DNA of 64,000 bases from a virus. This document shows, in pieces, positions 14,901 through 63,402 of this stretch (its first letter is position 1; every line of letters starts with the position of its first letter). The stretch spans positions 2,396-66,395 of IMG/VR virus record IMGVR_UViG_3300020159_003728; one strand, written 5' to 3'. A program made the position numbers and the translations under genes. The notes beneath the pieces are model-generated. The model searched no databases. It worked only from the letters and a program-made list of their open reading frames with translations, and was not told the DNA's origin.

Positions 14901-17900
14901 AAAATACCGTTTATACAATGTTGGATTTTGCAGCGGCAAAGGTATATCAAAACAATATTGGCGTTCCTGTTGGTTCTGATGTTGATTTTGGTGAATACCT
15001 ATGGCTTGTTCAAAAAGCAAACGGTGAAGTTGGCCTAGTTAAAACTTCTGATTTAATTCCACTTGTCACCAAAGGAGTTAGCAAATCAGAACCAGATATT
15101 TATATCCTTGGAGCAGCCGGCGCCATAAATGACGGAACTTCATCTTATCTAAGTAAACTATGGATGGCTTCAGTCCCCATTAATGCTACGATCGTCACTT
15201 CAAAACTTGGGTCTGGTGTCGACTCTGAAGAGATTGTTGACAATCTATCCGGAGGTAAGCCGTTTTCAGGTTGGAGTGGCAACTTTGCAATAATGCAATT
15301 CCCCGCCTCTCTTCTGGGTGCAGCCGATATTGATGGCCACCGAGGGTATGTGTGGGAAGGTGAATTCGACGAATTCCTTAGTGAGGGAGCTAAAGAAGAC
15401 CTTGATGACACAATAAAACACATAAAGGAAGGCATTGCAGGAGAACACGCGCCTAGTGCTGCCGCGTATGTTGGATTTAAACAACTTTATGACGGGTTCA
15501 TGGAAATCGAGTCTTCTAGTTCACTCAGCACTGCGCTTTCAGACTGGGATGGATTTGAGGCAATTCCAGGACCGCTCGCTATTGCTGCCGTTATGGGTCG
15601 TTTATACAACAAAGAAGAGGGCGACAAGCACCCATGGGTAGTTGATGTTTTGGGTGGTGATCCCGGCAAGACACTCTTCTTAGTTCGCAATACAGAGACT
15701 GGTCGCTATCACTTTATGTGGGCCCCACCTGAGTCCCTTGACGCAGAAGGATGGCTATTCAAGCCACATTTGAGCAATGGCATATTTGATCCAAATAACA
15801 GTGATTTAGCCATAAGTAAAGCTGGTACAACAAATATTCCAAAATTCGAAATCGTTGCTCATCGAGTCGGAAACATGACATATTTTGAGTCAGATTTGGG
15901 TTTTGCGCTGCCAGAAAATTCTGAAGAGTGGCGTCGGATTGTTATTGCTGATCCAACTGGAGGCGGGCCGCGCGATCTGTGGGCTCAGAGGTCCATAACT
16001 GGTTCTGAAACTCAGCCGCCGTTATCTTTATATAAGCTGCCAAACTTTACTGATGCTCAAATTGCAACCGGAGCTCCAGATGTTTCCTTGATGCCATTGC
16101 TGCATAAGTATAAGTTTGGCTACAAACCAACAGACAGTTTGCCGGTTGCGAAAATTCAAACCGCCAAAACAGTTCCTCCTAGCAAGAAAGTTCTTTTATC
16201 GGATATTGCTGATGGTATTAATAGTGGAGAACTTCAGATCGGCGTAGGAGATCCCGTCTCATTTAATGATGTTTCAGATGGATCCCCAATGAGCGAAATT
16301 GCCAAGGTGCTTAATATTGCCCTACGAAGAACTGGTTTTTACAATAGTGTCTCAAAGGACACGAAAATTTTAGTTCCTTCAATGGGTGTATGGGAAAATA
16401 TTTCTGATCATATCACCGTTGCAATTCCGGCAATCTCCGCACTGATGCGTCACATGTTGCAAAATGGAATCAGTGTCACTGATTTAATGCCATCGATTAG
16501 TAATTTGTATCAGCTAGATATAGCCAAGAAAGAAGATAGTTCATTTGGGCTAATGACTCACGGAGTTCTTTCGAAATTAGCAGTCGCTATTGCAAATGAT
16601 CCTGATTTTAAATTTGAATTCACAGACCCAACAAAGTTCACACTTGAAAAGATACTGAGTTATTTTAAACCTACGCAAGATGGTAGCTTTTTTATTGAGT
16701 CTTCAGAGGGCCCGTTTGATACTTCTCCTGCCGGCCTGGTAGTTCTCGCTAAATTACTAGCTAGGGAAATTCATGTTGCTTCTTTTGGGCACGATGTTGA
16801 TTTGTCTCAAATTAAGCAGATGATCGATCCGCCGCTAATTTCGTCTACTGGTGAACCATACCCCAAAAATTCATTTAACTACGACACTGTATTTAGACAT
16901 GGATTTAATGACTTAGATAATGGTTCCATTGACCAAAGTGACACCATAGAAGTGTCAGAGCATATTGATGGACTAATCAGTCATGAGTTTGATTTACTTT
17001 CTACATCACTAAATGAATTTGCAGAGGCTGGATTCCCTACATTGGCTAGTTCGCCAGCATTACAACTTCAGACACTTGGTGCGCGCCGAACATCAATTGC
17101 GATGGTGCGACAGCTCATGGGAATGATCATAGATGCTGAAAACGAGCATGATCATAAGCGCGCTAAGCAACTACGAGCTATTGGTGATCAATACATAAAG
17201 CTTTCTCCAATGATTGGCGCTCTCCCAGAACCAATTCGCGCTCGCTTCAATCAATTTTTTAAAACTGGCGGATTCCCACCAGCGCCAAAACTCGCTAAAG
17301 TTCTCGGCCATAAGTCTGGAAGCATCGTTCCGAAGCATGGTGGTTTCGACGGTACCGCACTTGGCTCGGTATCAGCAAACGGCAAGGCTATTGCTCCTCA
17401 TGTTGGGGCCTCGGCGCTCCTTCAGTCAGTAGAAGATGCAACAGCTCATCTTGCTAATGGCGGCTCTTTGGCGGAAGTGCCAGACATGTTCTTGCTTGCA
17501 GCAATTAAGGAAAACATTCAATCTACTGACGGTGATGGCAAACGCTTCAGGATCGATAAAAGCATCTCAGAAGGATACAATAAGGGCACTTTTGGTGTAA
17601 TTGATACTTTGTCACCGCTCGTTCACAGTGATGGTCCGAATGCCTTTAGGCGTTACATCATCAAAGATGCTCATCGCAATGCGGCAGAACATCTTCAGGA
17701 GATACTCGGTAGTGCCATCGAACATGAATTATCTATTCCTGCACTAGGCCATCGCATTGCCGGTCCAATGAAGATGAAGAAAGACAAGAATGGCGTTTCT
17801 CAAATTCAACGCCCCATTGTCATGGAGCATATTGCAAACCTCTTTGACAAGCCAGGCTGGACGGTTGTGGGCCACACGACAGACTTGCCTGCCGGAACAA

Positions 17901-19933
17901 AATGGAACCCGGAAAGCCTCGCCAAATTTATCGCACTTAACCGTTTTATCAACCACTATGACAGAACTCCACAAAACCTAGTTGTTGTGCTCGATCCGCA
18001 GGGAGAGGCACACTTGGTCCCAATTGATGACGGCAATGCGTTCTACGGATACAAGTTAAAAACGGAAGGGCCTTTGTCTCTTTTGACTGGAGATACAGCT
18101 CAAGAAAGTTTGGATGGATTTAAAACGATTGACGGCGTTGGTCATCAGTGGTTTAAGGAAACACAAAGTTTATCTACAGAAGATAAATTGAAGTTTGCTG
18201 TTGCACTCCGCGAAACAGTTGCTCGCATAAAAGGCCTTGATCTCGACGATGTTCGAATGCAGTTACTTAAAGAATCCGGCTGGTCAGAGGAAGAAATTTC
18301 ACATATTGGAGCAAAACTGACATTACTTGGCAATCGCCGGGAAGCTCTTGAGTGGGAAAAAATGTATCAGCGTGCTGTGAAGGCTATTGGGCTTGAAGTT
18401 GCTGATGTTGAAGCGGAAGTTAAAAAACAAAAAGAGGCAGCTGCCACCAAGAAGGTTGACCTGTCCTCGACGGGTGCACAAACTGCTTACAATGCACTAG
18501 CAAAAATTGGTAAAGGCCGCAATACTGGGGCGAAATTCCTTTGGGACGGTGAAAACATCCTCGAGCGTGAAGTCGTCCTAAGTAATGCACAGATTGCAAA
18601 TAGCACTACTGGAATTGATGGCCAGGCGCTAATTCTTCAATTCCGTGCAACTGGTAATGCCTATGCAGAAGCAAAAAAGAAAGCACAGTCTGGACAAGAT
18701 GGGTGGAAAGCACTTCCAGGACGAGACCAGCCAATGCTTCCACGGTATAGTGCTCCATCAAAAACGGGCGATCAAGTGGGTCCGGGGAATAAGAAAGATC
18801 CGATGGGTAATGGCAAGATCCGTTATTTTGATTTCCATCAATCTGGCCTAGACTCAATCGGTGGGAACGGTCAGCTGTACGAAAAAACATTAGAAGATGG
18901 GACTGTTATCCAAATGTTTGTTGCAGTCTTGTCACAATCTAGTTATGGCAAGCACTCCTATGATGGACATGTTGTTGTAATTAAGCCAACAGAAAATGCA
19001 GACAAAACGGTGTTGAGTATTGCGAATATGGATCAGGTTCTCGATCCCGCACTCACCGAACTTGGGATTACTTCAACCCCACCCCTACAAGAAGAATTAA
19101 ACATGCTCGGAATGCGCAACCTTGCAGTATCGCTTTTTGGCAATGATGCTCGAAGCTGGAACGATCAGAAAGTTATTGACAAGCTAAATGAAAAAGGCGT
19201 TGAGTTGGACGACATTGCGGTATCCGCTACGGCTCATCATCAACCATATATTCACTTAACTCGCGATGTTCGAGATGCCCTTTCGTCACAAATTAAAAGA
19301 ATTGGCATCCTTCATGGATATAAGGCCGGCGACACATTGACCTCATTTGTGCAGGCAATGGAAAATGGTGGGGTAACAGGCGCTTACCGTCGCGTAACTA
19401 ACGGATTCCCGAAGGCGGGTATATCTACATCGGCAGATACGCAGCGCGGAAGTAACGACTGGTCCTATCATGGTTGGGCTGCCGATGGAATGAACACCGC
19501 ACCCAATGAATCAATGTTTACGGCTCCAGATGACAGCCTTGCCACCATGTTGTACCTTGGCGGCGGAAGTATGACTAGCTCAAAAATTCAAACCATAACG
19601 CCATTGGAGTTTGCCCTTGAGCGAGTTGATACTGCATGGACTCAGGCTGACTCTTACGGTGATCCGGATACTCAAACAGGAATTTTATCGATGAGTCTTG
19701 CGAGCAATAATCAACCGTTAATTCGTGGTCAGATGCCACCTTCTCGATCCTTTCATGTATTTCAAAGTAAATCTGACCTAGAGTCAGCAATATCCCAGCT
19801 CAAAGAAAAAGGAATTACAGAATTCGATGGTATTCCGATCGAAAACCTCTTTTTCCACAGAGAAGACCCAAATATTGCTTCTAAAGCTAAACTCCTCATC
19901 GACCTATGGAGAGCTAGAGGGTGGGTAGCATGA
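8945..19933 (+). CDS. Giant (3662 aa) modular protein with an intact HipA/PI3-4K-like kinase domain and a possible C-terminal ART-like domain
   Basis: N-terminal RCPQG tag, then basic and Pro-rich linkers. Kinase motifs YIIK..QEILG..IVMEHI..HYDRTPQN..PIDDGNAF at about 17570-18045. Confidence 0.75.
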   Translation: MQTTDAHMIETKGYISVPAITHIEISRLPKDKRVQLIHYKALAFNADRKNAALSRDTTFVIETKGLKPDWDPGLGPGGGWRCPQGSRYGGYITDKFGRGCGGGILRRLGDALGQLNNNLASTTGAGLAATGERRDMRRLARAAARQRYRDDTNLARSLYPSLGSRALDRLGFGYRRTTYGLPPFYGPPQPKRRNRGANPNKPPIVTRVLDRTGDRYNDMLDRILYGKNRPKKKTPSKRTVVTGKVSQKRKKKSPTAKKPSIITRLLDNTGDKYNTLIDRVLYGRNKKGRSGRRSIPQATKQPVKKVTTPRAKKKKAVVKKATPKPVLPKKKIGTVGKFDPVSLSPKNRTLLAKLAQDDLDDLETFWRKMLNLGPADPLEQTEIDDFIENKIKQYKPGDKSAGAYIGFLKAQSNDYQALKAWKDEYSNDANGDAWIGELNKLGPTRRKKFLDALNASAPPKKKAPAKKVPAKKKPAPAKPAAKKPVAPTPQAPAPQAPTPAKPAPTPKPAPAPKPVPVPQVPTPNITPEVDEIEPIDDTPVDVDEDGKPETLPSWLKPVEDDPEKELPLPSFLLPKPEEPEPEKPEFPAWLKPKEPEAEIVPEAEIIPEPVSPLEAELEEIPIVEPEVAQESNAEYLEWLAEQQKLLSESPKKSPELDSLLGAINVKNDGFYTLGEFEDTPDGINDALKFIQDTSKIADALNYKGWIGLYKNQDTGKFIARPVEYINPDDVDGSLILAKKDELYGTVDLDSFLIKDLIGTSLPEPKIKKDKPEKIFVPASVTEIAIKTAGISGKDSRDLIKGLIAKAEESGEDQVWVALIDGKNATSFHGPVSEIEKIVKKSLKANFKQQIYFLGHVSGKDGFSQFARDSYHWYQEIGKHNGVPLKYRPNHTFEMDAGELDDDGPDAWITAFLNPNYDGIKEMFKQNPSATPYHLSGNDKVEMTNAALLNYLGTLPDGHEAYKIRRRPASASKSRIAFAELPWFGHLGKQTGKSVGQRYKVLKDGFYDDPMFGPDQTKLTGMLHSALADARALAYSQSKDMFIIDVAPSDGDPIMNIVDLDRLQFLISNGNKFRIIAQVEQTGGTWNKTYNISINSDYKKVAPDTPLKFSSWLGARKVVSQKPPDDDDETDPVGEVNKFINGVLGTTLPEPKPVAAFNFVIEAIDSGDDVDSTIPEVEPIFATKTDEELADVLNGVDTIDWWKANSPFEKSDLDEFVIQAKQSAKNAASTDGIPTVKKVDSALGIVNEQIAKLEKGIPLNKGNDAKWDTLRSLFIARIQKKHLEYLRKIAKTKEDLDTTAGLAAADIGYKSLPADVAVTVDVDQVLNDETITLGEALDLIGSAKPIKEVLEEKLKTATGVVQFGSLPEQMETLTGIPMSNIDNLTTWSGGKTSATLDSILAALQNNKPVTTSANNEIKELEWDLNNLEFVVKELTVEATKELELRIKAQLQLMNVNLLNILAEKGISTPAKFLNKDMTGVNGDYLKSLSNLFELSYDTLGTNSYISWAAANDVLVMAKELKRLKKADPNKTAKGILYAIASKPGASVPEIIDPAPPVAKKIKMSLNDQISFSDIGALDLVDTLGVLMDQAMVNKQRIMIWVTNDSDEKITIGTYKKIIVGTYEEMSANWSNVGSVIAGVMPNGAIYVSASSTANQSKWLSKVGKYGTGGWDVPLGAAYKFEGESEFEVLDKLYDAKDNLIISKDTNDGGWSIGAAAPPKSMFTPSKDAPPTTNMAGFESPDAANYISLPGRIKKSHSLVLNNLPEAAEANLQGTPIKNSDWANIYDTVISPGVDIPLLDSEDADWFNAAFFTTENLRDLLNSVAKSGVPDGAEVHFYVGPEGKILVRVLPYQPSWASEDVVTKKKGYKLIAVASLDTPFLASGKNSGGEPGINQFWIASNIGDTSDLDYIPNTLKTNSAAEFKKLGFKSWSDINGGNFKKIAPLLDAALKEILPSAADIPFDDNTFESMTPDSAPQWISPSAPLDIENTVYTMLDFAAAKVYQNNIGVPVGSDVDFGEYLWLVQKANGEVGLVKTSDLIPLVTKGVSKSEPDIYILGAAGAINDGTSSYLSKLWMASVPINATIVTSKLGSGVDSEEIVDNLSGGKPFSGWSGNFAIMQFPASLLGAADIDGHRGYVWEGEFDEFLSEGAKEDLDDTIKHIKEGIAGEHAPSAAAYVGFKQLYDGFMEIESSSSLSTALSDWDGFEAIPGPLAIAAVMGRLYNKEEGDKHPWVVDVLGGDPGKTLFLVRNTETGRYHFMWAPPESLDAEGWLFKPHLSNGIFDPNNSDLAISKAGTTNIPKFEIVAHRVGNMTYFESDLGFALPENSEEWRRIVIADPTGGGPRDLWAQRSITGSETQPPLSLYKLPNFTDAQIATGAPDVSLMPLLHKYKFGYKPTDSLPVAKIQTAKTVPPSKKVLLSDIADGINSGELQIGVGDPVSFNDVSDGSPMSEIAKVLNIALRRTGFYNSVSKDTKILVPSMGVWENISDHITVAIPAISALMRHMLQNGISVTDLMPSISNLYQLDIAKKEDSSFGLMTHGVLSKLAVAIANDPDFKFEFTDPTKFTLEKILSYFKPTQDGSFFIESSEGPFDTSPAGLVVLAKLLAREIHVASFGHDVDLSQIKQMIDPPLISSTGEPYPKNSFNYDTVFRHGFNDLDNGSIDQSDTIEVSEHIDGLISHEFDLLSTSLNEFAEAGFPTLASSPALQLQTLGARRTSIAMVRQLMGMIIDAENEHDHKRAKQLRAIGDQYIKLSPMIGALPEPIRARFNQFFKTGGFPPAPKLAKVLGHKSGSIVPKHGGFDGTALGSVSANGKAIAPHVGASALLQSVEDATAHLANGGSLAEVPDMFLLAAIKENIQSTDGDGKRFRIDKSISEGYNKGTFGVIDTLSPLVHSDGPNAFRRYIIKDAHRNAAEHLQEILGSAIEHELSIPALGHRIAGPMKMKKDKNGVSQIQRPIVMEHIANLFDKPGWTVVGHTTDLPAGTKWNPESLAKFIALNRFINHYDRTPQNLVVVLDPQGEAHLVPIDDGNAFYGYKLKTEGPLSLLTGDTAQESLDGFKTIDGVGHQWFKETQSLSTEDKLKFAVALRETVARIKGLDLDDVRMQLLKESGWSEEEISHIGAKLTLLGNRREALEWEKMYQRAVKAIGLEVADVEAEVKKQKEAAATKKVDLSSTGAQTAYNALAKIGKGRNTGAKFLWDGENILEREVVLSNAQIANSTTGIDGQALILQFRATGNAYAEAKKKAQSGQDGWKALPGRDQPMLPRYSAPSKTGDQVGPGNKKDPMGNGKIRYFDFHQSGLDSIGGNGQLYEKTLEDGTVIQMFVAVLSQSSYGKHSYDGHVVVIKPTENADKTVLSIANMDQVLDPALTELGITSTPPLQEELNMLGMRNLAVSLFGNDARSWNDQKVIDKLNEKGVELDDIAVSATAHHQPYIHLTRDVRDALSSQIKRIGILHGYKAGDTLTSFVQAMENGGVTGAYRRVTNGFPKAGISTSADTQRGSNDWSYHGWAADGMNTAPNESMFTAPDDSLATMLYLGGGSMTSSKIQTITPLEFALERVDTAWTQADSYGDPDTQTGILSMSLASNNQPLIRGQMPPSRSFHVFQSKSDLESAISQLKEKGITEFDGIPIENLFFHREDPNIASKAKLLIDLWRARGWVA

Positions 19934-42474: not shown

Positions 42475-42622
42475 CGGTAGACCAACGATGTGCGATCACT
42501 GCGGAGAAATGACAGCAACGCTTACAGTATGGTCTAAAGAGGTCATAAATGCATGCTCCTGCTGGTGTCACACTCGACGAAAAGAAGGTAATGAAGTGAA
42601 AAAGAAAAAGGGCCGTAAATGA
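42467..42622 (+). CDS. Small Cys-rich protein
   Basis: CDHC..CSCWCH; overlaps both neighbours. Confidence 0.5.
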   Translation: MLDGRPTMCDHCGEMTATLTVWSKEVINACSCWCHTRRKEGNEVKKKKGRK

Positions 42623-42786
42623 TCACTCCACAAACAAATCCGATGGTGTGCATAGAACATCTAGAATTCGTTCCCTGCCCACAATGCGAAAAACCACATC
42701 CGGAGTGGTATAGCAGCGATCTCGTTGCCTGGGGTATCGTCAACACTTATCGAACAAACAAAAATGAGGAAGAGGAAACAAAATGA
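42619..42786 (+). CDS. Small hypothetical protein (55 aa)
   Basis: ATGA overlaps at both ends; MITPQTNPMVCIEHLEFVPCPQC. Confidence 0.5.
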   Translation: MITPQTNPMVCIEHLEFVPCPQCEKPHPEWYSSDLVAWGIVNTYRTNKNEEEETK

Positions 42787-42950
42787 CCACACATCAAACA
42801 CGAACCTGGTATCCGTTGCCACAGTCCTTCAAGATTGAGAACAAAAAGACCATCTATACCGTCGTCGCATTTGCCTTCGAACGAGATGGGGTTCTCTGGC
42901 TGACGATGGAAGGCGCAATCTTCGCAGCAGAAGCCGTCGAGGCCAACTGA
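42783..42950 (+). CDS. Small hypothetical protein (55 aa)
   Basis: ATGA overlap and GAGGA upstream; MTTHQTRTWYPLP. Confidence 0.5.
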   Translation: MTTHQTRTWYPLPQSFKIENKKTIYTVVAFAFERDGVLWLTMEGAIFAAEAVEAN

Positions 42951-43110
42951 GGTCGGAAGCCCGTGTGAGAGAGCTGTCGGCTAAATCTATCTGAGAAGTG
43001 GCCTATAGCAGTGTCTTACAGGTGCCCCCCACCCCCAGAATGGGCAAAAAAAAAGCAAAACAGCCCCGCCCGATAGGGCGAACAAACATAACAAGCGATG
43101 ACCAGACAAA

Positions 43111-43146
43111 GAAAAAACCCCACGCTTGTCAGGCGTGGGGTCTCTC
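43111..43146 (-). terminator. Rho-independent terminator
   Basis: On - strand, ACCCCACGCC-tgac-AAGCGTGGGGT followed by a T run. Confidence 0.7.
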
Positions 43147-43163
43147 GTTCTCTTTGCGATTGT

Positions 43164-43310
43164 CTAGCGTCGTCTTGCCTTGACGATGAGCATAGTGACG
43201 ATAGCAACGATGCCCACGACAGCACCTATGGCGTATGAGTCCCATTCAGTGACCTTTTCACACCAACCCTCAGCACAACGATAGGCATTGCCCTCAGCGA
43301 TAAGCCTCAT
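43164..43310 (-). CDS. Small membrane protein (48 aa)
   Basis: MRLIAEG..AIGAVVGIVAIVTMLIVKARRR*; ATGA overlap with the upstream micro-ORF. Confidence 0.5.
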   Translation of the reverse strand: MRLIAEGNAYRCAEGWCEKVTEWDSYAIGAVVGIVAIVTMLIVKARRR

Positions 43311-43378
43311 CGTGTCACCATCGCCATAAGAACCATCGGCAGAACGATTACTGCGATTACCCCAATAATGCTTAGCAT
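43307..43378 (-). CDS. Hydrophobic micro-ORF (23 aa)
   Basis: AAGGAG RBS; MLSIIGVIAVIVLPMVLMAMVTR*. Confidence 0.45.
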   Translation of the reverse strand: MLSIIGVIAVIVLPMVLMAMVTR

Positions 43379-43420
43379 TTTCACTCCTTGTGTTTCTCAG
43401 GCTTGTTCCTGATAGAGATA

Positions 43421-43449
43421 AGCCTATAGACCTACTAGACCAGTGTCAA
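43421..43449 (-). promoter_or_regulatory. SigA-type promoter
   Basis: TTGACA-17 bp-TAGGCT. Confidence 0.7.
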
Positions 43450-43459
43450 GTGTTTCCGT

Positions 43460-43475
43460 GTTACGGTATTGTTAC
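43460..43475. promoter_or_regulatory. GTTAC-N6-GTTAC direct repeat (MtrA/GlnR-type box)
   Basis: GTTACggtattGTTAC. Confidence 0.4.
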
Positions 43476-43494
43476 AACATTTGACATGCCATAC

Positions 43495-43534
43495 CGAACG
43501 AATGTTCGCCATAGATAGACCGAACGAGTGTTCG
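43495..43534. promoter_or_regulatory. Two LexA (SOS) boxes, Gram-positive/actinobacterial type
   Basis: CGAACgaatGTTCG at 43495-43508 and CGAACgagtGTTCG at 43521-43534. Confidence 0.75.
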
Positions 43535-43554
43535 ATTGTGTCCCCCCAATAGAC

Positions 43555-43634
43555 TTATCCACACCCTGTGTATAAACCTGTGGATAACCTCAATGGTTAC
43601 CTGTGGATAACACTGTGTAAAAACCTGTGGATAA
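43555..43634. promoter_or_regulatory. Cluster of six DnaA boxes
   Basis: TTATCCACA 43555, TGTGTATAA 43567, TGTGGATAA 43579, 43602 and 43626, TGTGTAAAA 43614. All fit TTWTNCACA. Confidence 0.85.
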
Positions 43635-43737
43635 CCTCATTACTCAAATAGTCCCGTAGAAAGAGAATGACCAATACTGCTCACGGGTGGCTTACGGGTG
43701 ATTACTCAGGGTGAATAGCAGGACTAGACTCTCACCT

Positions 43738-43950
43738 ATGAACGACACAACCATCACCTCACTAGACGGGGCTATGAAGGACTTGGAAACAATACTGCTC
43801 ACGGGGTATGTCCTGGGTGTTCCAGGCTGCGCGGAGTTTCGAGAGAAGCACTATCCAACCCTCAACAGAATCCGGGACTTACTGGAAGAGGTCGATGACC
43901 TTCGAACGGAGAAAGAACGACTCGAGCGCGTAGCTGGCTGGTCGTACTAA
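43738..43950 (+). CDS. Hypothetical protein (leaderless)
   Basis: TAGACT lies 7 nt before the ATG. Confidence 0.55.
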   Translation: MNDTTITSLDGAMKDLETILLTGYVLGVPGCAEFREKHYPTLNRIRDLLEEVDDLRTEKERLERVAGWSY

Positions 43951-44108
43951 CGCTTACGGGAGTCGCATCTCCAAGCAGCGACACCAATAGCAGTCATCCC
44001 AAGAGCCCCGACAATGTACCCGAAGGTCGCAGCACCAACGGCCATGGGTATAACAATCAGTACCTTACCAAGGACCCCAGCATTTTCCCAAGCGTTATTC
44101 AGTTTCAC
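43947..44108 (-). CDS. Small membrane protein (53 aa)
   Basis: GTG-start ORF with a long hydrophobic stretch (VLIVIPMAVGAATFGYIVGALG). Confidence 0.4.
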   Translation of the reverse strand: MKLNNAWENAGVLGKVLIVIPMAVGAATFGYIVGALGMTAIGVAAWRCDSRKR

Positions 44109-44292
44109 GGGACTGCCTGCCCTTTAAGACTGGACCACGGAGGTCATGCGTACGCAATGGGTGACCTGGAGGCAGCATCTGGCGATTCTTGCCAGCCTTC
44201 GTACCGGATCGATCCTCGCTCAGCCCCGTGAGTGGGTTGACGATCGTACGACCAATGCCTTTCGACTGAGATCCCTTGTTCTTTTTGCCCAT
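44095..44292 (-). CDS. Small basic hypothetical protein
   Basis: TAAAAT lies 5 nt before the ATG. Confidence 0.55.
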   Translation of the reverse strand: MGKKNKGSQSKGIGRTIVNPLTGLSEDRSGTKAGKNRQMLPPGHPLRTHDLRGPVLKGRQSRETE

Positions 44293-44330
44293 TCTTTATT
44301 TTACACGAGCATGATTTGGCTCTGTGTTAA

Positions 44331-44711
44331 CTAACGGGACTCCCAGGGTGCTACCGGATTACCGGCACTGCTTACCGGAGCCTGGCCGCGGGTATCGCCA
44401 TCGCCACCGAGGAGACCCTGAGTCTTTCGAGCATTGAGCTTGGAGAGGTTCATAGCCCCGATATCGTTTAGGTCGTAGCCAATCTCCGCCGCTAGTCGTG
44501 CGCAGTACCAGAGGACATCACCGATCTCGTGAGCTAGGGCTTCTCTACGCTCGGGGCTGATGACGCCGCCTTCATCACGGATGGCTTTCTTGACCTTGCC
44601 AGCTACCTCGCCTGCTTCGGAAGCAAGACCTAACGCGGTGTACACCAAGCCTTGCTCGGGGGGATAGATCGCAGTCGGGGCTGTTGCTGCCTGATAAATA
44701 GACAGATCCAC
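44331..44711 (-). CDS. MazG-like nucleotide pyrophosphohydrolase
   Basis: LGLASEAGEVAGKVKK, EIGDVLWY and NLSKL..R. Start set at GTG 44711. Confidence 0.9.
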   Translation of the reverse strand: MDLSIYQAATAPTAIYPPEQGLVYTALGLASEAGEVAGKVKKAIRDEGGVISPERREALAHEIGDVLWYCARLAAEIGYDLNDIGAMNLSKLNARKTQGLLGGDGDTRGQAPVSSAGNPVAPWESR

Positions 44712-44715
44712 TGGT

Positions 44716-45027
44716 TTACTCTTTCTCCTGCTCGGGGGCAGTTTCTTCGATCTCTTTTTGGAGTCGATCAAACGCTTCACCTGCTTCGGGCGGGGTCTGG
44801 AAGACTTGCGGGGCTCCCTCTGCCTCCCATTTGTTGATCGGACACGAGGAGTGTGGGAGCATTACCTTCGCCGGCATGAAGCATCCGCATAACGCGCATC
44901 GCTCGAGCCCAGTGAAGTATTGGCAATCCTTGCAAATGTCTAAACGGGACTTACGGACCATCCTGGCCACACGAGGAATCGTTGGGTTGAGCAAGTCGTA
45001 AGGTTTTGCTTCGCGTTCTGGAATCAC
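44716..45027 (-). CDS. Cys-rich protein, DUF6171-like
   Basis: RLDICKDC..RCALCGCFM..K..CPINKW. AAGGAG RBS. Confidence 0.7.
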   Translation of the reverse strand: MIPEREAKPYDLLNPTIPRVARMVRKSRLDICKDCQYFTGLERCALCGCFMPAKVMLPHSSCPINKWEAEGAPQVFQTPPEAGEAFDRLQKEIEETAPEQEKE

Positions 45028-45043
45028 TTTTGTCTCCTTTTCA

Positions 45044-45163
45044 GTGGTGGCGGGCGACCATCAAGGTGGGTCTATGAGTCCCGTTTTGTTAACGCCCTCG
45101 AGGGGACAGGACCCTCGACGGACGCTGATCGCCCTTCACTGGGAAAGGATCCAGCTAGCCACC
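45044..45163 (-). ncRNA. Candidate structured RNA or 5' leader
   Basis: Nested stems GGTGGC/GCCACC, GGGCGA/TCGCCC and TCGAGGG/CCCTCGA. A TATGCT -10 element lies about 6 nt upstream on -. Confidence 0.45.
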
Positions 45164-45180
45164 GTGTTCAGCATAGCAAA

Positions 45181-45804
45181 TCAATCAAAGTCCCATTGAG
45201 TTCCGAAGCCCTCTTTCTCTAGCCCCGCAGCGAGTGTCTTGAAGTAGATATCCTTGTGACTCTCTGGTTCGACCTCTTTTGGCATCTCGAGGGCCTTCTG
45301 GATTACTGCTGGGTACGCAGCATCACGAAGGCTGGAAGAGTCCCGTGTTCTCATCAGGGAGCCCCATTCCACGACCCTCCCCAGTCCAACATGGTACGGA
45401 GCAGTGACGACCTCGTAGTCAGTTGGGGTAACAAAAGTCAAGGTCAAACACTCTGATACGGGGCTGTCTTCTTCGATAAAAAGCTCACGAAGATCCCTCC
45501 CTGCGCTGCGTTCGCTGTCCACGGATACAAATCCCTCCGCCATGAATACAAACTCGTCGATACCCCAGCCTCGACGCAAGATCGATGCTGCCTGCGCCAC
45601 CCGCTTGATTCGTCGGGGCTGCGAGTCGTTCATAAAGGCTGATCCCATAGTCGCAATGACCGCTAGTCGGTCGCCGCGCCAACCAAACAGAGAGAAGGTG
45701 AGATCCTCACCAACGCCATATTCCTTAATGCCCTCGACTTTGGCGGTTTTTCCTGACTCAAGACATAGTGCCAGCTTGTAGTCCCGGGTTGGGTATTCTT
45801 CCAT
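45181..45804 (-). CDS. Hypothetical protein
   Basis: 207-aa ORF with normal globular composition. Confidence 0.7.
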   Translation of the reverse strand: MEEYPTRDYKLALCLESGKTAKVEGIKEYGVGEDLTFSLFGWRGDRLAVIATMGSAFMNDSQPRRIKRVAQAASILRRGWGIDEFVFMAEGFVSVDSERSAGRDLRELFIEEDSPVSECLTLTFVTPTDYEVVTAPYHVGLGRVVEWGSLMRTRDSSSLRDAAYPAVIQKALEMPKEVEPESHKDIYFKTLAAGLEKEGFGTQWDFD

Positions 45805-45849
45805 CTCGACAGTCTTTCATACCTGAGTGAACCCCAGGGTATCGTCCGG

Positions 45850-45984
45850 TTACCACTCTTCAGATCGCCAGGCCCGGTTCTCTCGACGCCGGAGAAGCCC
45901 CGACCAAGCACTCGTCTTGCTGCGACGAAGGGTTCGACAGCAGCCGTACGGGCACTGACGCTCAGCTCGCTTGTTGTGAAGCAC
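45850..45984 (-). CDS. Small basic Cys protein (44 aa)
   Basis: AGGAGG then GTG; CPYGCC..RRRENRAW. Confidence 0.5.
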   Translation of the reverse strand: MLHNKRAERQCPYGCCRTLRRSKTSAWSGLLRRRENRAWRSEEW

Positions 45985-46049
45985 CTTGTACCTCCTGTGG
46001 TAGCCCCGTGGTTCCGCCACGAACGCTTTTTTTAGGGTAGCCTGCGGGT

Positions 46050-46391
46050 ATGAGCAACTCTAACCCATCACCCAAAAAGAAGGCTGCAGCCAAGAAGCCT
46101 GTTGCCAAGAAGACTGCGCCGAAGAAGGCCTCTTCCGGGGCTAAGAAAGAACCCGCCAAGCGTGGTCGACCCCCAAAGAAGAAGGTCGAGCAAGCTCGCG
46201 TTTACGATCCCCTTGCGGATACGGTCGAGGACATCACCAATGCGGTCGAAGCAATGTTCGAGGAAGTTAAAGACGGGGCTGCTGAAGTGGCTGAGACAAT
46301 CAAGGAAACGGTCGACAATGTGATCCGTGCCAGTGATGTCATCAAGCCCAGTCTCCGCAAGAGAATGCTCGCCTGGTTCAAACGCAAGTAA
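46050..46391 (+). CDS. Histone-like Lys/Ala-rich protein
   Basis: KKAAAKKPVAKK and KRGRPP. TAGCCT lies 6 nt before the ATG. Confidence 0.7.
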   Translation: MSNSNPSPKKKAAAKKPVAKKTAPKKASSGAKKEPAKRGRPPKKKVEQARVYDPLADTVEDITNAVEAMFEEVKDGAAEVAETIKETVDNVIRASDVIKPSLRKRMLAWFKRK

Positions 46392-46410
46392 TCGGGGCTA
46401 TTATGGTCGT

Positions 46411-46548
46411 ATGAAACGACCTAAATGGAATGAAGAAGATCGCTTCCTCTTTACTACTCAGCGTCTACGCGCGCATACCAGCATCAATCGTCAGAAAGAA
46501 GGCCGTCGACGAGCTTGTCGTCAGCGTTTTATCGCGGATGAGTACTAA
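46411..46548 (+). CDS. Small basic protein (leaderless)
   Basis: TATTAT lies 6 nt before the ATG. Confidence 0.5.
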   Translation: MKRPKWNEEDRFLFTTQRLRAHTSINRQKEGRRRACRQRFIADEY

Positions 46549-46898
46549 CGGGGCTTCTTGGTCTTTGGAAGCGGTTGACTGCGAAGTCGCTGCCCACACG
46601 CCAGACACATCTCTGACCACGGATACCACCGGCGCTGATTTAGCGGGTGCGAACAGTCGAGTAGTTCTGTAGCTTTGGCGTTGAGACAGTCCCGTATGAA
46701 TTCCGAAAGAGATACGCCCTGACTCTGAGCTGCTTGTTTCCAACGCTCGTGGTCGGCAACGCTTGCGCGGATCAGAACTTGTCTTCCAGCAGGCTCGCCA
46801 GGGTCACTCCCCGTGTTCTTCGAACGACCGGTTGAGGTCGTCTCCGCCACCTTCTCCATTGCTGCTTCCAAATTGTCCGGGACTTCTTCTGTCGACAT
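46545..46898 (-). CDS. Ribbon-helix-helix DNA-binding protein
   Basis: QVLIRASVADHERWKQAAQSQGVSLSEFIR plus a C-terminal Cys/His motif. Confidence 0.7.
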   Translation of the reverse strand: MSTEEVPDNLEAAMEKVAETTSTGRSKNTGSDPGEPAGRQVLIRASVADHERWKQAAQSQGVSLSEFIRDCLNAKATELLDCSHPLNQRRWYPWSEMCLACGQRLRSQPLPKTKKPR

Positions 46899-47508
46899 CT
46901 AGGATCACCTCTTCCTCTACCGTAGCAGAGGAAGGAAGGGCTAATTGGATACCCAGCATCTCGTTCACCGTTGCTTGTGGCAAAACCCCAGATCGACCCA
47001 TCAGTTCGAGTAGCTTGCGTGCCTCTGCTTCTGGATCGAATGTCTCCTTCGGGGAAGCCCCGGCTGCCGTGCCAGCAAGAACAGCGCGCGGCTCGTGACC
47101 TATTCCGACCTGCTCGACCGTCATATTGAGGTTGTTTTGCTCCATTCCAAGGAGCTTTGACCGTTGGTTCATTATCGCTAAGACCGACTGAATTGCCTTG
47201 AGATCAGGCTCAACATTGACTTCAGTCCCGTCATCAAGGGTGATCTTGCGATGTTGAGTCATTGGCCAAATCGCTTGCTGAAGTGCGTCAAGTCGCTCAA
47301 GCTCGAGACGAAGCACCTCTGGGTAGCTCGATACAGCTTCGGAATTCATTCGAGAAAGCTGCCGACCAAGGGCGGAGTTCACTGCTCGAGTGGTCATCTG
47401 GAAGCGTCGAGCTATGTCTCCGGGGGAGACGCCAGCTTTACGCATAGCAAAGATGCGTAAGTCCCGTTCAGCAAGGAACTCCTTGGTTAATCCTTCTCGT
47501 GATGCCAT
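46804..47508 (-). CDS. HTH protein, probable terminase small subunit
   Basis: N-terminal HTH, then LELERLDAL..W..DLKAI..RSKLLG, a pattern typical of phage small terminases. Confidence 0.6.
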   Translation of the reverse strand: MASREGLTKEFLAERDLRIFAMRKAGVSPGDIARRFQMTTRAVNSALGRQLSRMNSEAVSSYPEVLRLELERLDALQQAIWPMTQHRKITLDDGTEVNVEPDLKAIQSVLAIMNQRSKLLGMEQNNLNMTVEQVGIGHEPRAVLAGTAAGASPKETFDPEAEARKLLELMGRSGVLPQATVNEMLGIQLALPSSATVEEEVILDVDRRSPGQFGSSNGEGGGDDLNRSFEEHGE

Positions 47509-54299: not shown

Positions 54300-55739
54300 C
54301 TACCCGACAACAAGCGTGTCTGCGTGGAATTCGTCTAAATACCGAACGAAGGCTTTGTTGCGAGGTGAGTAATACTTCCATTTGCTCGTCAGGCTCTCGT
54401 GGGCTTCCTTGTGCGAGTAGCCCATAGCCGACATTAGCCACGCCTTTGCGATTAGCCCTGTTCGGCTCTCGCCTGCGTGACAGTGAACAAGAACATCGCG
54501 ACCATTAAATAGTGCTTCATTTATTTCAGCAATAGCATCACGAACAACGCTGTCTATTGCTGGATTTGCTTCATCTTCTTGTTCGTCAAGCAAATAGAAC
54601 GAACGACGATACTCATAATGCTCGGTGTCATCGAAGGTGCGACAGAACGACATACACGCATAGTTCTCCTCTGCGTTGCGTGCGCCGGCGAGGTTTGTGA
54701 CGAACACCTGCTGTCCATACAAACCACCAATAGCAACCGGCTTTGGTGCGCCGTTATAGTCGGGTGATTTTGGTCGCCACGCTTGTTCTACTAATCGTGT
54801 TGCCAGCGACTCCAAGTCCTCTAGGTCGTATCGCTCCACCTTGCCATTCATCTGAACAAACCCGTGAATAGGTGTTGTCAGGCGAGCGGGAATGTTCTGA
54901 ATACCATACCAAGCACCTGCGAGTGCGCCAGCGACACAAGCAACCGTGTCGGTGTCGTTACCACCATCTATCGCATAGCGAATAGTGTCCTCAAAGTTCG
55001 TATTCTTTCTAATGGCATACACGGCCTCTGCGAGACAAATGTCCCCATAGCCATTGCTCTCACTCAATGGTAAAGAGTCAGTAAATAGCAACTCTTCGAA
55101 GTATGTGCGAAGTTTACTATCGCAATGGTCCTGTACTGCCAAGCGCATTGCGCTATCAAAAGTACGACGCCCACTAACCATCTCAGCAAGTGCGACTGCC
55201 ATAATCACCGCAGCCTCAACTGTTCGTGGATCCGTATGAGTAATCATCGCCTGTTCACGGGCGACACGCTCTGTCCACTGTGCGTCTTTCATTGCGCCTT
55301 TGATACCTACGGGCGCAACTCGCATCACGGCACCATTGCCTCGACCATTGCGAACGCGCCGAGTTAATGACTCTTCGTATGTGCGTGCCACTAATGGTGG
55401 GCGAGTAGTTGTGCCGACATCTTTTGCTGTCTGCACCCACTCTTTCCAAAGCTCCCACTGCGCAACTGGATTCCATCGCGTAATTAGGTTTTCACCAAGC
55501 AACACTGCCATTTGTGTGTCGTCGGTAAATTCGCCAAGACGCCAACCGAATGAACCGCCACCAATATGGCGACACGGCACGCCTTTCGGAAACTGCTTTG
55601 AGATTTCTCCCGGGGGACCAAACTCGTAGCGAGCGCCAAGCGCATCACCAACCGCTTGTCCAACAAGTGCACCAAGTGCACGATTTCTAATCTCAAAGTC
55701 ATCTCTAGTGGAACGGTACTGGCTGTTATCAAACATCAT
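54300..55739 (-). CDS. ADP-ribosylglycohydrolase fused to a dual-specificity/PTP-like phosphatase
   Basis: GDALG, FTDDTQM, GNGAVMR and GNDTDT, followed by VHCHAGESRTG (CX5R). Confidence 0.9.
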   Translation of the reverse strand: MMFDNSQYRSTRDDFEIRNRALGALVGQAVGDALGARYEFGPPGEISKQFPKGVPCRHIGGGSFGWRLGEFTDDTQMAVLLGENLITRWNPVAQWELWKEWVQTAKDVGTTTRPPLVARTYEESLTRRVRNGRGNGAVMRVAPVGIKGAMKDAQWTERVAREQAMITHTDPRTVEAAVIMAVALAEMVSGRRTFDSAMRLAVQDHCDSKLRTYFEELLFTDSLPLSESNGYGDICLAEAVYAIRKNTNFEDTIRYAIDGGNDTDTVACVAGALAGAWYGIQNIPARLTTPIHGFVQMNGKVERYDLEDLESLATRLVEQAWRPKSPDYNGAPKPVAIGGLYGQQVFVTNLAGARNAEENYACMSFCRTFDDTEHYEYRRSFYLLDEQEDEANPAIDSVVRDAIAEINEALFNGRDVLVHCHAGESRTGLIAKAWLMSAMGYSHKEAHESLTSKWKYYSPRNKAFVRYLDEFHADTLVVG

Positions 55740-55816
55740 AACGAGCAAGTCTACCCGTAATCAAGAGATACGCAACTCCCAACTACAGTTTCCTATCGTT
55801 GGGTTAGCGGAAAGAT

Positions 55817-59034: not shown

Positions 59035-59100
59035 AGCCCCGTAGGGAAAATACACAGCGGGGCTCGCTTGCGTGCTGAGATGAATGACGGTGGCGGATGA
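59035..59100 (+). repeat. Dispersed composite repeat, copy 1
   Basis: AGCCCCG-N16-CGGGGCT-N21-GACGGTGGCGGATGA. Confidence 0.75.
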
Positions 59101-60419: not shown

Positions 60420-60451
60420 AGCCCCGTAGGGATCTAGACAAGAACGGGGCT
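60420..60451. repeat. Dispersed repeat, palindrome-only copy
   Basis: AGCCCCG-N18-CGGGGCT. Confidence 0.6.
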
Positions 60452-60669: not shown

Positions 60670-60736
60670 AGCCCCGTGGGTTGATTTACCTAGCGGGGCT
60701 TGCGTGCTTACTGAGATGACTGACGGCGGCGGATGA
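60670..60736 (+). repeat. Dispersed composite repeat, copy 2
   Basis: AGCCCCG-N17-CGGGGCT-N21-GACGGCGGCGGATGA. Confidence 0.75.
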
Positions 60737-60795
60737 GTCAAGTCAATGATCTGCTCGAGCGGCGGATGAGTCAAGTCAATGATCTGCTCGAGCGG
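60726..60795. repeat. Perfect 33-bp tandem duplication
   Basis: GCGGCGGATGAGTCAAGTCAATGATCTGCTCGA twice. Confidence 0.9.
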
Positions 60796-61355: not shown

Positions 61356-61421
61356 AGCCCCGTGGGTAAATTTCCTAGTCGGGGCTCACCTCAAGTATCA
61401 CTCATCGACGGTGGCGTATGA
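61356..61421 (+). repeat. Dispersed composite repeat, copy 3
   Basis: AGCCCCG-N17-CGGGGCT-N20-GACGGTGGCGTATGA. Confidence 0.75.
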
Positions 61422-62987: not shown

Positions 62988-63056
62988 CGTACATTCATCT
63001 CGGCGTGTCCGCGAGCCCCGTAGGACAAATAATCAAACGGGGCTAATGCCAGATGT
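62988..63056 (-). repeat. Dispersed repeat, inverted copy
   Basis: On -: TCTGGCATTAGCCCCG-N17-CGGGGCT-cgcggacacgcCGAGATGAATG, which matches the flanks of the other copies. Confidence 0.65.
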
Positions 63057-63220: not shown

Positions 63221-63287
63221 AGCCCCGGGGTGGGAATTCTCAGGCGGGGCCACCTGCCCTGTATCACTCACTGACGGTGGCGGATGA
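63221..63287 (+). repeat. Dispersed composite repeat, copy 4
   Basis: AGCCCCG-N17-CGGGGCC-N21-GACGGTGGCGGATGA. Confidence 0.75.
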
Positions 63288-63402
63288 GTCTCGGCATCTT
63301 CTCGATCACCGCCCCACCCCTGGAAATGTCGAGTCGATCCGCCCCTGGGAACAAAAAATGCCGGGCGGATCATCTGACCCGCCCGGCATTTGGCAACTCT
63401 CA

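Follow-up and report, generated by a model that had tools for sequence, protein, structure and literature searches.

The sequence analysed here (the window) is a 64,000-nucleotide (nt) stretch of viral DNA corresponding to bases 2396–66395 of a 66,395-bp IMG/VR virus record (IMGVR_UViG_3300020159_003728), which is rated 45% complete. The record is a fragment of an uncultured freshwater actinophage, and the same DNA was found in lake, freshwater and aquaculture metagenomes from several studies. The element of interest is an array of repeats in a non-coding gap of approximately 326 bp (43385–43710), which holds six DnaA-type boxes and two SOS boxes. The gap is flanked on the left by a minus-strand ATG at 43376, with AAGGAG upstream, and on the right by the start of a plus-strand open reading frame (ORF) at 43711 or 43738. 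The elements of the array are as follows.

43460–43475, plus strand: GTTAC-N6-GTTAC direct repeat (one match in the window).
43481–43486, plus strand: TTGACA, 8 nt before SOS box 1.
43495–43508: SOS (LexA) box 1, CGAACGAATGTTCG, with an N4 that fits RNRY.
43521–43534: SOS (LexA) box 2, CGAACGAGTGTTCG, 26 bp from box 1.
43555–43563, plus strand: DnaA box 1, TTATCCACA, in an inverted pair with box 2.
43567–43587, minus strand: DnaA boxes 2 (TTATACACA) and 3 (TTATCCACA), at a 12-bp pitch.
43602–43634, minus strand: DnaA boxes 4 (TTATCCACA), 5 (TTTTACACA) and 6 (TTATCCACA), at a 12-bp pitch.

The six boxes conform to TTWTNCACA and begin at 43555 (plus strand) and at 43567, 43579, 43602, 43614 and 43626 (all minus strand). 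They form two triplets at a 12-bp pitch (43555/43567/43579 and 43602/43614/43626), which amount to a 30-nt unit repeated with 93% identity; box 1 faces left and the other five face right. Four of the six are perfect TTATCCACA. This word was found five times in the 64-kb window against 0.51 expected, a count reached in 0 of 100 shuffles, and four of the five copies lie within 80 bp. The degenerate pattern gave 11 matches in the window compared with 5.9 expected, six of them within the same 80 bp of the array. The two triplets described in an initial annotation of this DNA, which was made from the sequence alone, are thus present as claimed and far above chance. The fifth perfect box, at 57308, looks like chance. 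It was considered as a second-class array syntenic with the triplets of related loci such as L010, and was rejected because it lies within the SNF2 helicase gene and has no neighbouring boxes; the 66 kb of the record hold just one array.

The consensus of the SOS box is CGAAC-N4-GTTCG, in which N4 is RNRY. Only two copies were detected in the window (43495 and 43521) against 0.05 expected, and 0 of 100 shuffles reached two, so that the two perfect palindromes reported earlier were borne out. The plus-strand TTGACA ahead of SOS box 1 also precedes SOS-type boxes in the related loci L196 and L004, and no acceptable −10 element was found 16–18 nt after it. The GTTAC-N6-GTTAC repeat had been put forward as an MtrA or GlnR site. 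The repeat itself is there, but its strength did not hold up: at least one match arose in 7 of 100 shuffles, and the repeat was found in only 2 of 7 arrays, against a background of 0.044 per 700 bp. The only relative concerned is the genome G001, in which the GTTAC half-sites lie approximately 260 bp from the main array. By itself, the repeat is weak evidence.

Gene orientation changes at the array, as the initial annotation had recognized. Very large plus-strand ORFs of up to 3,662 amino acids lie left of approximately 35 kb and are presumed to be structural genes; the 3,662-amino-acid ORF occupies 8945–19933 in this presumed structural part of the window. A class II ribonucleotide reductase (RNR) gene and a TauD-family oxygenase gene are located left of the array. 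The small terminase that had been placed approximately 3 kb away was not found, since the ORFs there match a TauD-family dioxygenase or nothing. To the right, a single long minus-strand operon runs from 58553 down to approximately 43950 and encodes an SNF2 helicase, a lytic transglycosylase, a DUF932 protein, SSB, WhiB, ThyX, a primase-helicase and MazG. One minus-strand ORF of this early operon (54300–55748) encodes an ADP-ribosylglycohydrolase fused to a dual-specificity phosphatase domain. The earlier statement that dnaA is not nearby agrees with our finding of no DnaA domain (including domain IV) in the 66-kb record, in which dnaN was not searched for. No DnaA domain was detected in five related records either, one of which is 87% complete. 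Likewise, no initiator gene was recognized among ORFs of at least 100 amino acids between 35.5 and 64 kb, with ORFs before 35.5 kb unscanned and the record 45% complete. The window contains no tRNAs, and an Rfam scan of 42500–44500 gave nothing near the gathering score. The host is probably actinobacterial, because the early minus-strand operon encodes WhiB and because the nearest cultured relatives of the primase (identity of about 30% or less) belong to Arthrobacter, Gordonia and Microbacterium phages. A host of this kind agrees with the CGAAC-N4-GTTCG form of the SOS boxes.

When the primase was used as the query, 80 related loci were obtained at 48–61% amino-acid identity, and the module was found again in relatives that share no more than 57–64% identity in the primase or SNF2 helicase. 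Loci L004, L005, L034, L075 and L076 share TTGACA, two to four tandem copies of GTAC-N4-GTTCG, the pair TTATCCACA-N3-TGTGGACAA and a third box, TGTGGATAA; the sequence around these shared parts is unrelated. An inverted pair of the type formed by boxes 1 and 2, with its 3-bp spacer, is present in L004, L005, L034, L076 and L011, and arrays are also found in L010, L011 and L022. Each of five related genomes (G001–G005) has a main array of 3–18 DnaA boxes. All five hold 3–8 SOS or SOS-like boxes, which abut the main array in four genomes and lie 1.7 kb from it in G001. Five perfect SOS boxes adjoin eight DnaA boxes in L196/G005 (SNF2 helicase 64% identical), three adjoin six in L100/G002 (60% identical), and four abut approximately 16 DnaA boxes in the main array of G004, where the gap measures approximately 1 kb and is followed by approximately 400 bp of short repeats. 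In G001, the main array extends over 340 bp and comprises 18 boxes. Elsewhere in this genome, at 117478–117641 (L205 17000–17150), eight tandem CGAAC-N4-GTTC words are arranged at a 15–17-bp pitch with one 50-bp gap after the sixth; they lie just upstream of the SNF2 helicase operon and are the largest SOS-box array among the loci examined.

In the 60-kb G004, 33 perfect boxes were counted, and in the 129-kb G001 31, compared with 0 copies of the reversed control word in both. Separate arrays occur in at least eight places in G001, and four are found within 1.5 kb in G002. Throughout the clade, box variants differ from TTATCCACA only at positions 3 and 5 (TTGTCCACA, TTTTCCACA and TTATACACA), and 42 of 74 close box pairs are spaced at a 12-bp pitch. 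The arrays of the relatives are confined to the early half of the genome, those of G001 being inside the early domain and not at its border, and their position relative to the primase and SNF2 genes differs from one relative to another. A nucleotide search of a phage collection with 42800–44400 returned no match, and neither did a search with the module of L088, which carries a gamma-proteobacterial type of LexA box. No such array was present in the 36.5 kb read of Arthrobacter phage BruhMoment, the nearest cultured relative, which has one perfect box beside a one-mismatch box and one GAAC-N4-GTTC.

The relatives also show how the boxes are placed with respect to genes. In a 36.5-kb stretch of G004 (11000–47500; L203/L204), we counted 29 occurrences of the promoter-like motif AAC[TC]A-N14-CCGATA[CGT], the inner spacing of which is invariant, and 21 of the 29 have an ATG exactly 6 nt downstream. 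A TGTGNANAA box ends exactly 10 nt before the AAC in 20 of the 29 copies, with an identical distance in 20/20, and the remaining nine motifs (9/9) have a GAATAAA-type tract in the box position. From the side of the boxes, 23 of the 33 perfect boxes in this stretch precede a motif on the same strand, and 6 of the other 10 belong to the main array. Inverted box pairs lie between diverging copies of the motif, an arrangement that would explain the head-to-head pair in the window. AAC/CG cores resemble promoters of extracytoplasmic function (ECF) sigma factors, and the G004 motif classes suggest a phage- or host-specific sigma factor together with leaderless mRNAs. A second type of promoter occurs in four other loci: the pair in L006, the triplet in L010/L022 and the four boxes in L011, mostly at a 12-bp pitch, end 5–6 nt before TTGNNN-17-CATAAT, and in these loci an ATG lies exactly 6 nt past the −10 element, as it would in a leaderless transcript. 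The distance from the end of the nearest box to the ATG is 41–42 nt in both promoter types.

Based on these results, the reading that we favor, at a probability of roughly 0.45, is that the array serves as a control hub, through which host DnaA and LexA govern diverging phage promoters. It is built on four observations, namely the sites themselves, their enrichment, the conservation of the module and the fixed phasing of boxes to motifs in relatives. The identity of DnaA and LexA as the proteins that bind, the exact promoters in the window and the sign of control (activation or repression) are what we infer. Among the functions offered by the initial annotation (a host-type origin, a decoy, a sensor of host state and a protein-coated genome end), the sensor fits best in view of the fixed distance between boxes and promoter-like motifs in relatives, and the coated end fits poorly because contigs bridge the array. 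We rank the control hub first, followed by a replication origin, a decoy, sites for phage-encoded proteins and a DNA boundary; the first three are mutually compatible.

The hub would occupy the space separating two diverging transcription units, where the late (structural) half of the genome meets the early (replication) half. Host DnaA is expected to bind the six boxes cooperatively, their 12-bp pitch being that found in an actinobacterial oriC, and host LexA would bind the two SOS boxes. One box faces left; the five that face right would directly precede a weak rightward promoter, relative to which the last of them would lie at about −42 to −50. In this scheme, DnaA occupancy would report the replication and growth state of the host, LexA occupancy would be lost upon DNA damage, and the two together would set the activity of the promoters.

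The number of sites bears on a different possibility, in which the array is a decoy and hundreds of copies of its 6 DnaA and 2 LexA sites on multiplying phage DNA soak up both proteins, thereby blocking host initiation and triggering the SOS response without damage. Both datA and plasmids that carry such boxes are known to titrate DnaA. The counts in this clade, with up to 18 DnaA boxes per array, 8 tandem SOS boxes in G001 and 33 perfect boxes against none of the reversed word in G004, exceed what promoters need, sites for both host regulators are concentrated together, and the restriction of arrays to the early half of the genome also agrees with a decoy. A sink, however, needs neither a fixed distance to a promoter nor a rule of orientation, yet 20/20 of the G004 boxes keep one distance and the boxes face the motif that they precede. 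The one array in the 66-kb record would also be a modest sink. We regard a decoy as unlikely.

Returning to the control hub, the candidate promoters and other features that flank the array in the window are as follows.

43449–43444 and 43426–43421, minus strand: candidate leftward promoter P_L, TTGACA, 17-nt spacer, TAGGCT.
43640–43668, plus strand: candidate rightward promoter P_R, TTACTC-17-GAGAAT, with its geometry taken from relatives.
43672–43700, plus strand: short repeats, CAATACTGCTCACGGG (second copy at 43790–43805) and GCTCACGGGTG/GCTTACGGGTG.
43711–43950, plus strand: small ORF right of the array, 79 amino acids from GTG or 70 amino acids from the ATG at 43738.
43164–43384, minus strand: two tiny hydrophobic ORFs left of the array, 23–25 and 48 amino acids.

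The promoter-like TTGACA-17-TAGGCT noted earlier is indeed present on the minus strand, and P_L would drive the small minus-strand ORFs. It is omitted by a sigma-70 scan, as TAGGCT matches TATAAT at 3 of 6 positions; we take TAGGCT to fit the actinobacterial −10 element TANNNT. P_R is also absent from the list of that scan and would place the last DnaA box at about −42 to −50. The box-to-ATG distance of the relatives, when measured from box 6, falls at approximately 43676, just past the weak TTACTC-17-GAGAAT, and a transcript would be expected to start there. The short repeats occur as two exact copies, and four matches with up to three mismatches were found against 0.35 expected. The ORF at 43711–43950 is convergent with the end of the long minus-strand operon; it has no Pfam family, and its Atlas matches are unnamed viral clusters only. 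A strong terminator (43146–43112) follows the two tiny left ORFs, and homologs of the flanking small proteins were not detected in the 80 related loci at an E value of 1e-5.

Several of our findings weigh against a control hub. The sigma-70 scan of 42900–44400 found no promoter, and the hexamers of P_L and P_R are weak. The G004-type core ACCRATAC is not repeated in the window, in which six scattered matches were found compared with 2.3 expected, so that the phasing argument is borrowed from relatives. The SOS boxes lie approximately 80–120 bp upstream of P_L and overlap neither P_L nor P_R; this is usually not the position from which a LexA operator represses. The genes flanking the array are tiny and unconserved in relatives, and one pair is disrupted in two strains. 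Six DnaA boxes, and the 8–18 in the main arrays of relatives, exceed the need of one promoter. Each of the L004-type palindromes departs from the SOS consensus by one base, as might be expected of sites for a phage protein. Finally, the main arrays lie in the longest non-coding stretches, and four of six have an unusually unstable 30-bp window on one side, features that also fit an origin.

If the array were the phage replication origin, DnaA would assemble on the boxes and open the DNA, the phage primase-helicase and SSB would take over, and the SOS boxes would restrain the process until LexA is cleaved. The boxes have the same phasing as a triplet located between dnaA and dnaN in an actinobacterial genome, the array lies at a switch in gene orientation, and genes for primase-helicase, SSB, ThyX, RNR and MazG are within 10 kb. 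The failure to recognize an initiator gene (ORFs of at least 100 amino acids at 35.5–64 kb in a record that is 45% complete) points in the same direction. Each relative, moreover, has a single outsized main array in a long non-coding stretch, that of G004 being followed by its approximately 400 bp of short repeats, and an unstable 30-bp window (top 0.35–1.8%) was found beside the arrays of G001, G003, G004 and G005. In the window, by contrast, the least stable 30-bp segments within 150 bp of the array are only in the top 3.4% and 6.1%, short of what an A+T-rich unwinding element should give, and the flanks in G002 rank in the top 4.0% on the left side and 15% on the right. Inspection by eye, without a formal scan, revealed no series of DnaA-trio-like triplets in the array or the loci of relatives. 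Cumulative GC skew follows the gene strand, and neither the array described here nor the 115-kb position in G001 coincides with an extremum. An origin should occupy one locus per replicon, yet the relatives have many arrays, the position of which varies with respect to conserved replication genes, and no DnaA domain was detected. Most of the G004 boxes are tied to promoter-like motifs, and this promoter phasing leads away from a simple origin, which we consider possible but doubtful.

A control hub presupposes that the proteins bound are those of the host, and we therefore compared the sites with those of other viruses and of bacteria. Scanning all viral contigs for inverted box pairs gave at least 120 loci, among which L100 and L196 are relatives of the phage described here. 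Within 200 bp of the inverted DnaA pair, the gamma-proteobacterial SOS box CTGT-N8-ACAG was found at 9 of the 120 loci listed, compared with 0.77 expected. One of the nine is an overlap artefact and four are mutual relatives, leaving about four independent cases. From the presence of this box near DnaA pairs in unrelated viral loci, it would follow that the type of SOS box tracks the host group while the DnaA box stays constant. Arrays of 3–11 DnaA boxes are common in unrelated viral contigs among the loci listed (L082–L201), often at an 11–12-bp pitch, and a gamma-type LexA box adjoins the array in L088, L092, L096, L117, L132, L173, L183 and L185. In bacteria, the box triplet at a 12-bp pitch was detected in at least 120 species, and it lies between dnaA and dnaN in one actinobacterial genome and beside parB in a Rhodoluna bin. 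The composite of an SOS box and an inverted DnaA pair had 0 matches in a search of one genome for each of 185,579 species, so that neither a copied host module nor a prophage in these genomes accounts for the array. Among the SOS boxes examined in the window and its relatives, 14 of 15 keep RNRY in the N4.

The limited range of box variants, the variant seen in other strains (see below), the 12-bp pitch, the bacterial triplets and the dependence of SOS box type on host group argue that the proteins that bind would be host DnaA and host LexA. The earlier reading of the sites as DnaA sites and Gram-positive, or more narrowly actinobacterial, LexA sites likewise appears sound, given the enrichment, the WhiB gene and the relatives. 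The competing interpretation is that the repeats are operators or iterons for phage-encoded proteins and merely resemble DnaA and LexA sites. The GTAC-N4-GTTCG palindromes of the L004 type, which deviate throughout by one base from the SOS consensus and have an iteron-like pitch of 15–16 bp, would be expected from co-evolution with a phage protein, and over half of the genome is unseen. Such proteins would not explain why the DnaA-type boxes vary only where DnaA tolerates change, why 14 of 15 SOS boxes retain RNRY, or why the neighbouring box elsewhere switches to the gamma-proteobacterial LexA type with the DnaA box unchanged. In addition, six related records yielded no DnaA domain IV. Sites for phage proteins thus seem improbable to us.

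Variation among strains was assessed with contigs from four runs of four studies aligned to 42800–44400, in which the counts refer to the differences listed. Inside the gap, 18 differences were listed, comprising 16 substitutions and 2 insertions or deletions. Among these, none falls in the SOS boxes, and the only one in a DnaA box is a T-to-C change at 43573, which converts box 2 to TTGTACACA at the degenerate position 3. A deletion at 43513 and an insertion at 43519 in two strains preserve the 26-bp spacing of the SOS boxes. In P_L, the listed differences (43427–43439) fall in the spacer and none in the hexamers. This strain-level footprint of the array, drawn from the listed differences, is suggestive only. 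A 56-bp deletion (43298–43353) spans the junction of the two tiny left ORFs in two strains (runs X9 and X11), and for this reason these ORFs may not be genes. Contigs from independent runs bridge the array over 7.8 kb in X4 and 2.6 kb in X5.

The array also coincides with a change in base composition. G+C content climbs from about 44% to 52–55% at the array (approximately 43000) and stays high rightward. Early genes replace late ones at this same point, and a domain rich in the word AG[CT]CCCG starts there; G001 is likewise divided into two domains. All 65 copies of the word in the window lie at or after 42232. The most orderly part is the following feature.

43650–47230: lattice of 28 AG[CT]CCCG words, starting 16 bp past DnaA box 6.

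The mean spacing of the lattice is 132 bp, with a coefficient of variation of 0.17 and a minimum gap of 98 bp, and none of 5,000 random placements was as regular. Within real coding genes, the words are found in either orientation and in each of the three reading phases, which indicates a signal at the DNA level. Their spacing widens away from the array, and they thin out to approximately 48700 and are scattered to 63221. G001 has 62 copies, 60 of which fall within the early third of its genome, without regular spacing. A link between the lattice and the array is suggested by position alone. A unit of approximately 75 nt was further noted at 59035–59100, 60420–60451, 60670–60740, 61356–61420, 63014–63044 and 63221–63290. 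It contains the hairpin AGCCCCG-N16-18-CGGGGCT; ACGG[TC]GGCGGATGA comes next in four of the six copies and may represent a ribosome-binding site with a start codon. Both AGCCCCG and CCGCCACCGT were also encountered next to DnaA arrays in relatives.

A change of G+C content and word usage at one point could also arise from a chimeric assembly. This was rejected, because independent contigs bridge the array and G001 has the same two-domain genome. The same coincidence would be expected if the array were a DNA boundary coated by host proteins, such as a genome end, a packaging start or an injection stop like that of phage T5, since the array lies exactly at the rise in G+C content (approximately 44% to 52%), the start of the AGYCCCG words and the change from late to early genes. 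The injection-stop region of T5 reportedly contains DnaA boxes. The bridging contigs (7.8 and 2.6 kb) speak against a boundary, with no pile-up of ends reported, though contigs cannot show ends, and the arrays of G001 are inside the early domain and not at its border. We judge a boundary to be very unlikely.

A more far-reaching extension of the control hub would concern the clade as a whole. Large freshwater actinophages may have wired host DnaA into their early transcription, with the boxes serving as a fixed-position element at dozens of promoters and one SOS-bearing super-array as the master switch. In the phage described here, the super-array would also head the approximately 4-kb lattice of 28 AGYCCCG words, and a large nucleoprotein structure of a kind undescribed for phages would be nucleated there. 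We offer this extension as speculation and think it rather doubtful in its entirety.

Sites for host regulators are known from several replicons. Origins with DnaA boxes include P1 oriR and RK2 oriV, and these, like oriC, resemble the array in having close, regular clusters of TTATCCACA-type boxes. The array differs from origins of this type in having no clear unwinding element and no adjacent initiator, and its relatives have multiple arrays and promoter-phased boxes. The datA locus is also a cluster of high-affinity DnaA boxes outside the origin, but it is a single chromosomal locus that acts together with IHF in the hydrolysis of DnaA-ATP. In phage phi29, multiple boxes for host Spo0A tie phage transcription and replication to host physiology. 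The likeness to the array lies in the multiple sites for a host master regulator, and the regulator and the host are different. To our knowledge, direct sensing of host regulators by phages is rare, and textbook examples include GIL01 with LexA and phi29 with Spo0A.

Control by DnaA and LexA together has a precedent in Escherichia coli, in which, according to a review, the two proteins co-regulate uvrB and recN (PMC8203912). As is proposed for the array, sites for both host regulators are present in one promoter region, where the state of replication and DNA damage would be integrated (PMC8203912). The E. coli cases are host genes with one or two sites each, in contrast to the 6 DnaA and 2 SOS boxes of the phage array (up to 18 and 8 in relatives). 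In the phage clade, unlike uvrB and recN, DnaA boxes also appear to recur at many phage promoters. Stimulation of lambda pR by DnaA is cited in the reference list of the same review (PMC8203912). The closest phage parallel is GIL01/Bam35, a phage without a CI-type repressor in which tandem host LexA boxes (dinBoxes) in its own promoters control them (PMC6199540). GIL01 differs from the array in requiring the phage co-factor gp7, and it is not known to have DnaA boxes. A term search of the COBRA paper on whiB-bearing freshwater actinophages found neither DnaA nor LexA (PMC10914622). In our literature search, which had subscription journals and supplements outside its coverage, DnaA-box arrays were not described as phage promoter elements or as joined to SOS boxes.

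The fixed position of the DnaA sites before promoters in the relatives suggests that these phages read the replication and damage state of their host directly. Were the array to function instead as an origin, or as a sink for both regulators, it would represent a new phage route to seizing host replication and the SOS response. If the control hub is correct, it would add the combination of DnaA with LexA to the known cases, as a promoter grammar shared across a clade of abundant, uncultured phages from lakes, and would provide a testable answer to the question of how phages judge whether a slow-growing, oligotrophic host is worth a productive infection.

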